Source of the DNA: Clostridia bacterium
GTDB lineage: Bacteria > Bacillota > Clostridia > JAAYHZ01
Direction of reading: 5' to 3'
Length of the DNA stretch: 64,000 nucleotides
Assembly: GCA_050950825.1 (NCBI GenBank)
Contig: JBMNIH010000011.1
Location: 64,001 to 128,000, forward strand
A program made the position numbers and the translations under genes. This document shows, piece after piece, positions 34,689-38,531 of the stretch. Every line of letters begins with the position of its first letter. The first letter of the stretch is position 1. The notes under the pieces are model-generated. The model was not told the DNA's origin, ran no database searches, and was given only the letters and a program-made list of their open reading frames with translations.

Positions 34689-36515
34689 TTATTTATTCTC
34701 TACATAAGTACGATAGTACTCAAAGGTTTTAATTTCATCACGGTTCCAAATTTCCACCCATTTATCCAAGCCTGCAGCGTATATTTGCTCGATATATTGC
34801 TCCCATTCATTGTCGATATTGGCTATCTGCCCTTGATTGAATCGGGTGATAAAATCTTTATGAACCGCATTGATTTGGGCAGAGGTTTCTTCTTGTAACG
34901 TCTTAAATTCCTTGTACATTTCCATGGGCATTGTGAAGGCGGAATAGTACTTATCCGGTCGAATCCACAAGCTGTCATCATAGAAGCCGCCGGGGTGATA
35001 TTTATTCCAGAACTCAACCCATTGGACGGTGCAGGCATCAAAATTCATATAGATTTTGTAATCGTTGATAAAATGCTGATTACCGAACTGCCCGAAGGTA
35101 GCCCCTTCTCCCCTGCCTTTGTATTGGGGCGGTATTTTTTCAGGGTCGGTAAATATCAAAGGACTGTTGAATGGTTCTCCGGCCCATTTATAGTGAATAT
35201 GCTCGATACCCCACTTGTAGCGTATCCAATCTTCTCCGAAATAGGTGTAGTCCAAAATTTGGAACAAACGAATCAGTTTTTCGTCGGATACATGAGCCGC
35301 TATGGGATAGGTTACGCTCGGATCCCAGTTGAATGTAGCATAAGGACGATACTTTCCGTTTTCACCGGGTACGGGAGTAATGACAAAACGAGCATCCGGA
35401 TCCTGAAGCAGTATGGAAGCCGGCGGCCACTGTTCCATATCCGCATAGGTACCCAATATTCGGTAACCGCTTCTTGTGTTCATATAACCTACTTTACCGG
35501 TCGCCCATATGGACTGCAAATCGGCGGCATTTACGCTTCTTAAAAATCCTTTGTCCAGCATTTCTCTTACATACTGCAAGTAATCACGGTAAGGAGTATA
35601 GGCGTAATACGGAACAAAATCTCCAGTGACAGGGTCTTTATAGAAGTGAGAATCGTCCTTGTCATATCCGAACATATTGTATGTAATGTAGCTGTCGTTG
35701 ATGGAGCCGGTAAAGGTCGATCCGTAGGTATCGTCTACGCCGTTGTCGTCCGGATCATCCTCGGTAAAAGCTCTTAATATTTCTTTTACATCGTCCAAAG
35801 AAAATTTCGTGGTACTGAAATATACCGTATCGTCCCATTCCGGTTTTACCACGCTTTTCATGGGAGTTAAGTTTTCCGGTTCATAACCGATATTCTCCAG
35901 CCAATCCAAGCGCCACAAAGGTACATATCCGGTATGCGTTGCACGAGGAGTCAAAGCCGTTAATCCGTAGTACAAATCTTCCGTCCCCTCTACCCTGTTC
36001 ATATGAAAGCCGACGGCATCCTCTAACATTTTCTTGTAATAGCCGGGGTAGTATTGCTTAATCAAATTCAAAGGTACGGTTCTTCCTAAGCCTTGTTCCA
36101 CCATATACACGCCGGATTTGTAATAAAAGCCGTAGTCCGGTACGTCTCCCGCCGCCAACATCATATCCACTTGCTCATTGGCACCGGATTTTACAAGGAT
36201 ATCCCAGAAGTTAAATTTCACATTGAACTTTTCCTCCAGCTCGACTTTATCCCAGCGTCCTTCCACGAACTCCGGATTGCCGAGAAAATTAAACTCAAAT
36301 TTCTCCGCAAAGGGGTTCTCTATAACCGTTGTCGTCTCCGACGTTGTCGTTTTTGGTTCCGGTGCCTTCGTTGTTGTCACGGCTTTTGTTGTTTGCACCG
36401 AGCTTACAGACGATTCGCTGCTTTCGGAAGGATTTTTTTCGCTGCTTGTGTTACAAGCCGCAAAGTTAAGAATAACAGCCGTTACCATTAATAATATGAA
36501 CGCTTTTTTCATCAT
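34689..36515 (-). CDS. ABC transporter extracellular solute-binding lipoprotein (carbohydrate type)
   Basis: Lipobox NFAAC, S/T linker, MLAAGDVPD, RLDWLENIG, LRAFTEDDPDDNGVDDTYG. True start is ATG 36515; the ORF-track extension runs into the inserted element. Confidence 0.85.
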   Translation of the reverse strand: MMKKAFILLMVTAVILNFAACNTSSEKNPSESSESSVSSVQTTKAVTTTKAPEPKTTTSETTTVIENPFAEKFEFNFLGNPEFVEGRWDKVELEEKFNVKFNFWDILVKSGANEQVDMMLAAGDVPDYGFYYKSGVYMVEQGLGRTVPLNLIKQYYPGYYKKMLEDAVGFHMNRVEGTEDLYYGLTALTPRATHTGYVPLWRLDWLENIGYEPENLTPMKSVVKPEWDDTVYFSTTKFSLDDVKEILRAFTEDDPDDNGVDDTYGSTFTGSINDSYITYNMFGYDKDDSHFYKDPVTGDFVPYYAYTPYRDYLQYVREMLDKGFLRSVNAADLQSIWATGKVGYMNTRSGYRILGTYADMEQWPPASILLQDPDARFVITPVPGENGKYRPYATFNWDPSVTYPIAAHVSDEKLIRLFQILDYTYFGEDWIRYKWGIEHIHYKWAGEPFNSPLIFTDPEKIPPQYKGRGEGATFGQFGNQHFINDYKIYMNFDACTVQWVEFWNKYHPGGFYDDSLWIRPDKYYSAFTMPMEMYKEFKTLQEETSAQINAVHKDFITRFNQGQIANIDNEWEQYIEQIYAAGLDKWVEIWNRDEIKTFEYYRTYVENK

Positions 36516-36525
36516 TTTCACCTCC

Positions 36526-37015
36526 CTAATAATACTTTGATTTTCTTTGAATATCTCACTCATTCTTAGATTTTCTCATTTTTCAAGATGAGCCACATGG
36601 ACAGACAATACATTGTTGCATAATTATGGATTCCATAGTGCATACTAATTAAACCTGCGTCGTTTTGCTGTTTTACGGCCATTAGTATCCACACATTCTC
36701 CGGTGGCAACCCTCCCATGTCTAACGGGGTCATAGCCCTTAATTCCTTCGTTCTGCCTGCCCATGGAGGTGGATGTCAGTCAAGCTCCTTCACGGGGTCA
36801 TTGCCCTTATGGTGAAAATTCATCCCGACTATCCGGCTCTTCTTGTCAATGTTCAATCTATAATGAATGAATAGTGAAAACTTGAGTTTTACTCTGTCCC
36901 CTTGCACCGCTTAGTTACTTCCGTCATTGCTCGAGGAAGACTGTCAAGGGTCGGCGCAAGCCGAACGCAGTCTTGCCCTTGACCGTCTTACGAGAGCAAT
37001 GTATCCTTCCATAAG
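36526..37015 (-). mobile_element. Non-autonomous IS110-family-like element (no transposase) inserted in a Shine-Dalgarno sequence
   Basis: GGAGG (plus-strand CCTCC) at 36521-36525 and 37016-37020; deleting the insert restores AAAAGGAGGTGAAAATG. Long hairpin at 36925-37001; duplicated 18-nt motif; no ORF of transposase size. Confidence 0.7.
36700..36830 (-). ncRNA. Putative IS110 bridge/seek RNA (boundaries approximate)
   Basis: Repeated motif TAAGGGCWATGACCCCGT (36724-36741, 36792-36809); guide-like AAGGAG and CACCTCC segments match the insertion site. Confidence 0.5.
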
Positions 37016-37251
37016 CCTCCTTTTCTTTACACGTAAAATCCGCAATGACGATGTTCTCTATGTTCTCTATCTTTTCGTCATCGACCGGTCGAATTGATAT
37101 CTTTTACAACATTTTACCTAATTTTCGATAATGAAAAAAAAGGAACGAAAATGACATGTTTTTTTAAACAATGACTATAAATTACACAAAGGAAAGAGAT
37201 TTATTAAATTATGAGAATGGAAGGAAATAATCGACATCAAAAGTAAGGATT

Positions 37252-38139
37252 TTATTCCGTATGTTGTTTTCGGTATTCTTTGGGCGTTAATCCGGTGATT
37301 TGTTTAAATTTTCGAAAGAAATAGTTGGAATTATTAAATCCCACCATATCCGATATTTCCGCTACCGTATACGGTTTATTTTTCAATAAATAGCAGGCAT
37401 GATGGATTCGGTGCTGTGTAAGCTTTTTTGAAAAAGTGACGCCGTAGGATTCTTGTAGAATTCGTGTCAATTGGCGAACACTCAAATGCATGATTCGAGC
37501 CAAATCCTCCACTTTTATATCCTGCATATAGAAAGAATTAAAAAATCCGTCAATAAAGGCTTCCCTGTTTTCCTGGGTATATTTGAAAAACGGCTTGCTT
37601 TCTTCTCCGGTTGTACTGAAGACCTCTCTTAGTATACTAATGATCAGCTGTATAAAACCGCTTCGAATCACGGCGGTATAACCTAGCTTCGGATTTTCGA
37701 ATTCTTTTATGATACGCTCAACCATATGAATTTGCTCGGTATTGTCACGGAAGATATAGTATTTGTCAATTTGATCGGCGTAATTAAATATCTCGGAATA
37801 AATCCCGCTTTTCGGCTCAATGCTGAATCGAAAACTGCATCGGGATGTGCTTTCTTGGGAAATGTTCATGATGGAATGGTATACACGAGGGCAAATAATT
37901 AAGCAACTTCCGGCATGCAATAGGATTTCCTTGTGGTCCACGTTAAATTGATGCTCTCCGCTCTTTATGAAATGTACCTCATACACGGGATGATTGTGAA
38001 AGGATACGGTCCACGACCCGGATCCGAAAAAGCTTTTGTTTAAATATACTCGCAAAAGAGCATCCTGAATATCCGCTTCGAAGTTGTATGTCTTCGTATC
38101 GTTCATTTTTTCTATTGGAAGGCTTTCCGAACAATTCAT
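37252..38139 (-). CDS. AraC-family transcriptional regulator (cupin + HTH)
   Basis: FHNHPVYEVHFIKSG; LSVRQLTR; EISDMVGFNNSNYFFRKFKQITGLTPKEYR. Confidence 0.92.
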   Translation of the reverse strand: MNCSESLPIEKMNDTKTYNFEADIQDALLRVYLNKSFFGSGSWTVSFHNHPVYEVHFIKSGEHQFNVDHKEILLHAGSCLIICPRVYHSIMNISQESTSRCSFRFSIEPKSGIYSEIFNYADQIDKYYIFRDNTEQIHMVERIIKEFENPKLGYTAVIRSGFIQLIISILREVFSTTGEESKPFFKYTQENREAFIDGFFNSFYMQDIKVEDLARIMHLSVRQLTRILQESYGVTFSKKLTQHRIHHACYLLKNKPYTVAEISDMVGFNNSNYFFRKFKQITGLTPKEYRKQHTE

Positions 38140-38531
38140 CTTATCACCCGTGAATTATGGCAGAATAAATAAATTTCCTATACTTTCATTTTACTACCAA
38201 ACCTTTTTCACTACAAGGCGTACCGCTTTGGAAATATATATTGCGCGAAGACATCGGGTTTTATGATTCCGAGCGATTTTAGACAGCCGAAAAAACATCC
38301 GTACCAAGATACCCTTGTCCTGTTTTCATTTGTTTGTTTGGTTTATTCACATCTTTGCTTATAAAACGTTTATCGGTATTTTGATTTTGGCTCCTGTCCG
38401 GGTACAGGCGCATTGGTTTCGGTCGATACATACATGGGATATATGGGAAATCAAGTGATGAGTGGGGTCAAAGCGGATCGCAATGGAATCACAGTTTGCA
38501 ATAAAGGTAGTCAAACAGGAGGGTTGAGTCC

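Follow-up and report, generated by a model that had tools for sequence, protein, structure and literature searches.

The locus considered here raises the question of how a 495-bp piece of DNA came to lie between two GGAGG motifs upstream of a gene of the solute-binding-protein kind in a Clostridia bacterium. It is located in a stretch of 64,000 nucleotides (assembly GCA_050950825.1, contig JBMNIH010000011.1, positions 64,001 to 128,000), which we call the window and whose coordinates are used throughout. A preliminary description, made from the letters of this DNA, had proposed that a transposase-less, IS110-like mini-element of 490 bp (36521-37020) is inserted at the ribosome-binding site (RBS) of the gene and that it is mobilised in trans among RBSs. 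We find that the insert is real and that it corresponds to the right (3') non-coding end of an IS110-family element in its entirety, with neither the left end nor the transposase gene. It carries a predicted bridge RNA gene whose guides spell a Shine-Dalgarno sequence, and it probably arose as a one-off partial product of transposition, moved in trans, in which the right donor boundary of the parent alone was retained.

Read on the minus strand, the insert runs from 37016 down to 36522, with the cut set after GAG as it is in full-length copies of the element, and the locus has the form ...GTAAAGAAAAGGAGG|CTTATGGAAGG...TATTATTAG|GGAGGTGAAAATGATG. The insertion proposed earlier therefore stands, with a length of 495 bp instead of 490. 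The GGAG at 37017-37020 (minus strand) is the left half of the original Shine-Dalgarno sequence, as seen from the window and from the empty allele described below, and is now 495 bp from the gene. The second GGAGG lies 6 nt 5' of the ATG (36515-36513) of a lipoprotein gene. Here the tail of the insert, GGGAG, and the flanking G rebuild GGGAGG, and this motif with its spacer and the ATG occupies 36513-36526 on the minus strand, so the RBS is preserved, as had been supposed. A search for inverted repeats found four inverted pairs in the insert, none of which joins its termini, and the sole open reading frames (ORFs), of 55 and 43 amino acids, do not match a transposase. These results bear out the description of the insert as lacking both terminal inverted repeats and an enzyme.

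The origin of the insert was evident from the genome of the bacterium itself. A search with the insert DNA returned three places: the window (100%), contig C9 (100% over query positions 5-500) and contig C10 (two pieces). The latter two are full elements, of 1902 bp (G000:C9:203171-205072) and 1834 bp (C10:170866-172699), with left ends that are alike; both sit mid-contig in contigs of about 265 kb, and their junctions read ...AAGGAG|...|GT and ...AATGAG|...|GT, respectively. The insert (36522-37016, minus strand) is the last 495 nt of the C9 copy, with 495/495 nt the same. It starts at parent position 1408, 9 nt past the transposase stop; the 1407 bp that precede this point in the parent are missing, and the parental left end (CATTCCTGTAG...) is absent.

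The parent consists of a 115-nt left end starting CATTCCTGTAG, an intact ORF of 427 amino acids and the 495-nt right end. Its transposase matches PF01548 (4.7e-25, residues 19-180) and PF02371 (2.7e-24, residues 289-372), giving the N-terminal DEDD (RuvC-like) domain and C-terminal Tnp domain of an IS110 recombinase, and it scores 215.5 bits against a cut-off of 140 with NF033542, "IS110 family RNA-guided transposase". The C9 and C10 transposases are both intact and differ at 5 residues. Terminal inverted repeats are absent, and the three full-length copies (C9, C10 and the metagenome contig L010) have only GAG in common at both sides. The 495-nt non-coding region 3' of the transposase is an IS1111 trait; short subterminal repeats, another such trait, are below the resolution of our repeat search. 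Together with the two-loop RNA described below, these sequence features identify the parent as an IS110-family RNA-guided insertion sequence with a bridge-RNA gene 3' of the transposase and an IS1111-like layout. Thus, the IS110 derivation suggested in the preliminary description was correct, and the parents with a DEDD recombinase that it anticipated do exist and share the right end of the insert, but the left end of the insert is internal to them.

The left terminus lies close to a hairpin of 77 nt (36925-37001, minus strand) that had already been noticed and that we recovered by inverted-pair search and RNA folding. Its arms (36925-36950 and 36976-37001) are 26 nt long and 85% complementary; folded as RNA it reaches -37.8 kcal/mol (z = -4.06), and 0/200 shuffles fold equally well. 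In the parents this hairpin follows the transposase stop within a longer imperfect palindrome. An outer 13-nt stem around it in the full-length C9 copy (L002:1493-1505 with 1604-1616, 92% complementary) spans the start point of the insert, and the left terminus of the insert falls inside the 5' arm of that stem. A fold of the whole insert as RNA (z = -3.42) was set aside, since this single-sequence structure differs from the one supported by covariation.

To find what the right end encodes, we turned to relatives of the element. A scan of one genome per species confirmed at least 586 relatives of the recombinase; the best 80 of these are 51-77% identical and almost all lie in records named Clostridia, and among the matches listed many records are named Lachnospiraceae or Blautia. 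The right ends of nearly all relatives have in common an island of about 110-180 nt that is 70-82% identical, whereas their transposase DNA is only about 65% identical. Likewise, the insert DNA matches 5/61 genomes, its own included, and the matches in the other four are only 48-175 nt long at 70-81% and equal this conserved RNA core. We aligned 42 non-redundant copies (<93% identity) drawn from 64 unique sequences, leaving out L090, whose 3' part diverges. The consensus structure has an outer stem and two stems that each close a large loop, with one hairpin within each loop; the prediction contains 19 pairs, 9 of them with compensatory changes. When the pairing was tested on the 42 sequences with one hairpin added, 93.6% of cells were paired, compared to 27-49% when the partners were slid by 1-3 columns. 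Ten pairs are altered on both sides, and 42 cells are so altered versus at most 10 when slid, a level that 0/500 shuffles reach. Judged by this covariation, the right end encodes a two-loop bridge (seek) RNA, and the core of its gene in the window, the outer stem around two guide loops, lies at 36670-36850 on the minus strand.

The four strands of the two loops provide candidate guides, which we compared with element ends and flanks at those of the 64 loci where the end pattern found an element end with enough flank. On the donor side, the 5' strand of loop 2 holds AGGAAU (36742-36747, minus strand), the right-donor guide, which pairs with the left end of the parent, absent from the insert. 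This pairing fits in 49/50 relatives: left ends with CATTCC go with GGAAU (10/10) and those with CTTCCT with GGAAG (34/34), and for CTTCTT an A faces the T in 5/6. The 3' strand of loop 2 has GGGAG (36712-36716, minus strand), which reads in the same direction as the final five bases of the element. As a left-donor guide it changes together with the tail, both being GGGAG in most relatives and AGGAG in the L019 group.

On the target side, the 3' strand of loop 1 contains GAAGGAG (36785-36791, minus strand), the left-target guide, which has the same sense as the left flank and matches it at 6/7 nt in the window. Across 37 loci this guide co-varies with its own left flank, with a mean contiguous match of 5.78 versus 4.69 +/- 0.14 and 0/5000 shuffles as high, and rare guides stand beside equally rare flanks, such as GGAAAG (L014), ATGAAG (L022) and GAAAG (L068). 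The right-target guide candidate, AUUUUCACC, is in the 5' strand of loop 1 (36811-36819, minus strand). It is 9/9 complementary to 36514-36522 and would pair with the last G of the core and the next 8 nt of the right flank, into the start codon.

The target guides read as a Shine-Dalgarno sequence with its spacer, so the clade is expected to insert in RBSs, and this is where its members are found. Near-identical copy pairs in about 20 relatives set the element ends as ...AGGAG|C(A/T)TTCCTGTA on the left and ...AGGGAG|G on the right in all of them, and the C9 and C10 copies and the metagenome contig L010 obey the same junction rule. We examined 49 distinct right junctions flanked by at least 200 nt; G stands at +1 in 46, and in 32 of the 49 an ATG, GTG or TTG that opens at least 60 codons lies 3-14 nt downstream. 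We conclude from these junction sequences that the clade lands between the GGAG and the G of RBSs, co-oriented with the gene, and that the RBS is its systematic target, in agreement with what had been proposed from the single insert. With GGGAG as the tail and G as the flank, GGGAGG is rebuilt before the gene at every clade insertion. In locus L032, the left end of a second element (CATTCCTGTAAT...) follows TAAGGAG at the transposase stop of a first one, which looks like a nested or tandem insertion in a Shine-Dalgarno-like site within a sibling copy.

Elements of the mycobacterial IS900 group reportedly insert between the RBS and the start codon in one orientation, and targeting of translation-initiation signals would then not be new in principle. 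The two groups differ in phylum and in target consensus, and the orientation of IS900 is said to serve an antisense ORF. In our full-text literature searches, no paper turned up that describes a clostridial clade directed to Shine-Dalgarno sequences.

If the 495 bp are an insertion, an uninterrupted site should exist, as the preliminary description had predicted. We listed 24 public runs, from anaerobic digesters, landfill, sludge and biogas reactors, 20 of which hold most of the stretch, and compared contigs of four of them with window positions 36100-37400. In three of the four, contigs join 36520 directly to 37016, skipping 495 nt, with 5 letters that fit either side. These are DNA contigs from runs X2 (614 nt, with 238 + 376 nt on the two sides) and X5, and an RNA contig from X15 (233 nt). 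Contigs of the repeat part in these runs extend beyond 37016 and enter a transposase gene at its 3' end. The empty allele therefore exists and is widespread, and the insertion is more than a chance pattern of the window sequence. An orthologous locus in relatives was rejected as an alternative empty site: the gene belongs to a family with a great many members, and upstream of the best relative (73% amino acid identity) the sequence is unrelated.

Two other features of these contigs were observed. In run X5, a gene-side contig covering 36100-36525 (depth 13.1) stops at 36525, precisely where the alleles branch, and the depth of the empty-allele contig is 6.5; a second allele may be present at this site in that run. 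In runs X5 and X8, high-depth contigs (e.g., 1436 nt, depth 122) match the hairpin in its 5' half alone (36959-37005) and diverge at 37005, which is 11 nt from the left terminus of the insert. Other variants of the element in those communities therefore have that half of the hairpin.

Why the right end came to this site can be read from the guides. We scored all 19,693 GAGG sites of the genome against a 15-nt model built from the two target guides. The highest score, 13, was reached by 11 sites, including the right junction of the insert itself, and the empty site, counted from its flanks, would score 14 (6/7 + 8/8). By this measure the window site is the best match to the guides in the genome. 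Since the insert occupies the best cognate target, we argue that it was placed by RNA-guided recombination, and since it does not differ at all from the right end of its parent, the event must be recent.

The left terminus requires another explanation. It contains CTTATGG at +2 to +8 from the cut (37009-37015, minus strand), a perfect complement of CCAUAAG, which adjoins the right-target guide in the 5' strand of loop 1. This pairing begins at +2, the same offset that loop 2 uses on the true left end. A complementary 7-mer of this kind is available at 19 of 1563 possible internal starts when the whole RNA is considered and at 6 of 1563 when only that loop segment is. We propose that the recombinase of the C9 or C10 copy, acting in trans, would have moved a partial product only, either a partial circle or a product of direct strand transfer. 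The canonical right (left-donor) boundary would have been retained, and the other boundary would be an internal point of the parent, possibly picked by pairing of CTTATGG with CCAUAAG in loop 1 in the register normally used for the left end (+2 onward). The insert has the features of a partial fragment: one terminus is canonical, the other is internal and unlike the canonical half, the parent is near-identical and the empty target is known. This reading, a one-off partial product moved in trans, is the one we consider probable.

Several observations weigh against it. On the side of the guides, the C9 and C10 full-length copies themselves occupy poorer matches. Across 42 loci, the right-target guide at register 0 has a mean match of 2.62 compared to 2.42 +/- 0.16, with 381/3000 shuffles as high, and at register +1 79/3000 shuffles are as high; the 9/9 match in the window may thus overstate the deciding weight of this guide. 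Searching window positions 35500-38500 with Rfam 15 gave no match at E up to 1. As for the left terminus, it matches the canonical right-donor site at only 2/6 positions, so normal donor recognition would be poor, and the CTTATGG/CCAUAAG match was noticed post hoc. CTTATGG follows the stop codon only in the element of the window and in L012, of 77 distinct downstream sequences listed, and CCAUAAG lies partly within a conserved hairpin stem. There is also only one transposase-less copy of this kind, and the occupied allele is known from this assembly alone. The junctions of the insert were not found in the public runs, the best share of sampled words being 0.91, in 11/24 runs; in the four runs compared, no contig bridges 37016-37021, from the host left flank to the insert. 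Runs without the junctions and stretches without contig cover do not count as evidence of absence. Neither a circle junction nor a back-joint was seen in the contigs of these four runs, and contigs cannot show rare forms.

How often such derivatives arise bears on the alternatives. One of the three copies in the genome of the bacterium lacks the transposase. An exact 25-nt pattern of the left end of the insert gave no hits among genome contigs (one genome for each of 185,579 species), and an exact 20-nt pattern gave one metagenome hit, which is a full-length copy. The expectation of other copies at GGAGG sites was thus not borne out, as no second transposase-less copy of the insert was found in its own genome, in genome contigs or in metagenome contigs. 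With the RNA model (R1), five other genomes yielded 28 hits; the transposase is full in 23 of them, partial in 3 (L110, L116 and L123) and missing from 2 (L114 and L119). The first of the last two (L114:1555-1800, in the genome holding L079) is a miniature of about 250 bp that combines the first 17 left-end nt with the loop-2 half of the right end; it sits in the RBS GGAAGGAG|...|GATTATATG, before a gene, and because it has both ends it could be moved in trans. The other is a right-end remnant, 89% identical, in front of a gene. Derivatives are therefore common, and from their structures each looks like a separate accident; a multi-copy family of mini-elements is not supported by these sequences.

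The C10 copy has itself suffered a loss, of 68 nt between two 18-nt direct repeats that are the two loop hairpins. As a result, the right-target strand of loop 1 (5') is fused to the left-donor strand of loop 2 (3'), and the single loop that remains would match the right junction of the element itself. Since its transposase is intact and its own target loop deleted, the C10 element would depend on RNA from another copy.

We next consider explanations other than a single aberrant transposition. Two successive steps in place are possible, although we do not think them likely: a full-length element would have inserted at the site and then lost its left end and transposase gene (1407 bp), by joining of the left junction to an internal point by the recombinase or by spontaneous deletion aided by the palindrome after the stop. 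A normal insertion would be expected at the best guide match in the genome, and deleted or 5'-truncated derivatives are common in relatives (L116, L110, L123 and L119). Moreover, the C10 copy carries its 68-nt deletion and L043 a like one, the insert starts within the 13-nt outer stem of the long palindrome, and the X5 contigs (the gene-side one at 13.1, ending at 36525, and the empty-allele one at 6.5) hint at a second allele. However, the empty allele shows that the host left flank is intact down to the last base, and no microhomology exists between the ends of the absent 1407 bp. With both flanks intact, a random deletion is therefore unlikely, and for a spontaneous one to start precisely where the element does, a coincidence of about 1 in 1000 or more would have to be assumed. 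Two recent events would be needed, yet the insert is still identical to the C9 copy, and a full-length allele at the site was not seen in the four runs compared.

We regard as unlikely the view of the preliminary description, that the insert is an established element resembling a miniature inverted-repeat transposable element (MITE) and is repeatedly mobilised in trans among RBSs. Sub-modules that can be mobilised in trans do occur in the family, MITEPpu9 (PMC12288879) being an example, and the L114 derivative of about 250 bp lies in a Shine-Dalgarno sequence. A MITE, however, keeps both ends of its parent and is present in several copies at different sites, whereas the left end read by the donor loop, which L114 retains, is missing from the insert, and the insert is a single copy in this genome. 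The exact-pattern searches argue the same way, having returned no genome hit and, from metagenomes, the lone full-length copy. A single aberrant transposition product therefore fits better. An assembly artefact, in which the right end of a repeat was joined to an empty or occupied locus, is very unlikely. It would account for the junction words of the insert being present in no public run (maximum share 0.91) and for the lack of contig cover over the left junction in the four runs compared. On the other hand, the right junction is the one that the recombination chemistry predicts, and both host flanks are intact to the base. In addition, the left join has 1 nt in common with the internal sequence of the parent, far too short for a k-mer or overlap mis-join, and the same assembly resolves two full-length copies in the middle of contigs of about 265 kb.

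A bolder extension of the partial-product reading is that the right end is a self-sufficient module consisting of the guide RNA only. A strand of loop 1 in a shifted register would set the left boundary after the stop codon, and the recombinase would copy the RNA gene alone into the best RBS. Made from a host promoter as the leader of a transporter mRNA, the bridge RNA would then supply intact guides in trans to copies like C10, and it might tune translation of the host gene through its right-target guide, which is antisense to the RBS region of that mRNA. We consider this idea doubtful.

The parent, the fragment and their RNA can be placed among known systems. Like the IS110/IS1111 elements with a bridge RNA or seekRNA (IS621, ISEc11), the parent has a recombinase with DEDD and Tnp domains and no terminal inverted repeats, a short donor/target core instead of a target duplication, and a two-loop RNA whose strands match the left and right halves of target and donor. 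Its long non-coding region 3' of the transposase resembles the IS1111 type as presented in PMC11187229, which also gives subterminal inverted repeats for the IS1111 subgroup, 7 bp on the left and 3 bp on the right. The object in the window differs from these elements in being the RNA-encoding end alone, with neither enzyme nor left end; its clade inserts into the Shine-Dalgarno sequences of genes, and the RNA is not found by Rfam 15 models.

The closest precedent for the fragment is in Hu et al. (bioRxiv 10.64898/2026.08.14.744561). This preprint reports partial IS110 circles with one canonical donor boundary and partial fragments, >99% identical, that were re-inserted with matching empty sites, and it proposes an alternative 6-7-nt guide in the same loop for some junctions. 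The insert is similar in having one canonical terminus, an internal other boundary, a parent identity of >99%, an empty locus and a possible alternative loop guide. In contrast, the preprint deals mainly with large, expanded loci, whereas here the parent is a compact 1.9 kb and the fragment is exactly the RNA module; circles are reported there and none was observed here.

ISPpu9 of Pseudomonas putida forms sub-module minicircles (PMC12288879), and its derivative is registered as MITEPpu9. As in the window, a small-RNA module (ssr9) lies 3' of an IS110-family transposase gene and also occurs alone elsewhere in the chromosome, and it depends on the transposase in trans. MITEPpu9 differs in having its own end boxes, A' and B', with AG at each boundary and eight copies, and its RNA is dispensable and is not a bridge RNA; the insert has the right end only, is present once and encodes the predicted bridge RNA itself. 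Among related pathways, half-match recombination has been described (10.64898/2026.08.31.748434), as has a direct top-strand transfer that moves each of the two junctions in its own step (10.1101/2025.10.25.684509). None of the mechanisms involved is new, since RNA-guided IS110 recombination is known, and so are partial products and trans-mobilised modules. In full-text literature searches we found no account of a re-inserted fragment made up of exactly the bridge-RNA gene.

The gene downstream of the insert (34689-36515, minus strand) encodes a 608-amino acid lipoprotein that would be of the solute-binding-protein kind, a lead that comes from a protein atlas, in which it falls among SBP_bac_1/SBP_bac_8 clusters (feature score 0.97, structure TM 0.63). 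It gave no Pfam or NCBIfam hit at threshold and no PDB relative. The family is very large: two related genomes, G001 and G002, have 41 and 27 loci that match. On the other side of the insert, at 37252-38139 on the minus strand, is a gene for an AraC-family regulator (PF12833, PF00165, Cupin_2).

The X15 RNA contig of the empty allele indicates that the leader of the lipoprotein gene is transcribed from at least 90 nt upstream, with the caveats that these are contig data and that RNA libraries may contain DNA. In the occupied allele the gene would keep its RBS and gain a structured leader of 495 nt without a predicted terminator, as the consensus scan found no terminator-like site in the insert. 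The intact bridge-RNA gene would now be under host transcription, and read-through transcription of the bridge-RNA gene together with the transporter gene is plausible on this model. Promoter-like sites, which are consensus matches only, number 6 in the insert versus 2.6 +/- 1.4 expected; one, likewise a consensus match only, is on the strand of the element, inside loop 2. Pairing of the leader with the RBS in cis was absent from the minimum-energy and centroid folds of the segment from the bridge RNA to +20 (z = -1.15, 15/100 shuffles as good).

Some further features of the element and its relatives were observed. A promoter formed across the joined ends is of a kind known for the IS110 family. 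In L058, L059, L063 and similar loci, the joined ends would make TTGACA, 17 nt and TATAAT; the element of the window's genome has no equally clear junction promoter across its ends. The full-length copy in L010 is otherwise 99.9% identical and has the left-target guide GAAUGAG instead of GAAGGAG, and the left flank of the C10 copy ends in GAATGAG, as if that copy had been placed by a variant with the GAAUGAG guide. L043, compared to L038, has a deletion of the same type as that of the C10 copy. Within the transposase gene of the C9 copy (L002:692-703), the 12-mer AAGGAGCTTTCC resembles a left junction, with the left half of the target followed by a left end like those of Lachnospiraceae copies, and the 11-mer TGAAGGAGCTT is common to this gene and the left-target guide region.

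For the host, the insertion would mean a 495-nt leader on a transporter gene, polymorphic in anaerobic-digester and landfill populations. For the family, the locus would be a clean natural example of an IS110 recombinase off its canonical path, in which the parent, the product and the empty site are known and the guides can be read, and it suggests that a partial product can be exactly the bridge-RNA gene and still reach its cognate target. More broadly, a clostridial clade of at least 586 relatives appears to have bridge RNAs aimed at Shine-Dalgarno sequences, which the tail of the element rebuilds. The covariation of guide and flank in about 40-50 natural copies constitutes data on how many guide positions matter, a number relevant to how specific bridge recombinases are when used as editing tools. 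Shine-Dalgarno sequences would suit such an element as targets, since they are abundant, define the orientation of insertion and can be occupied largely without harm.

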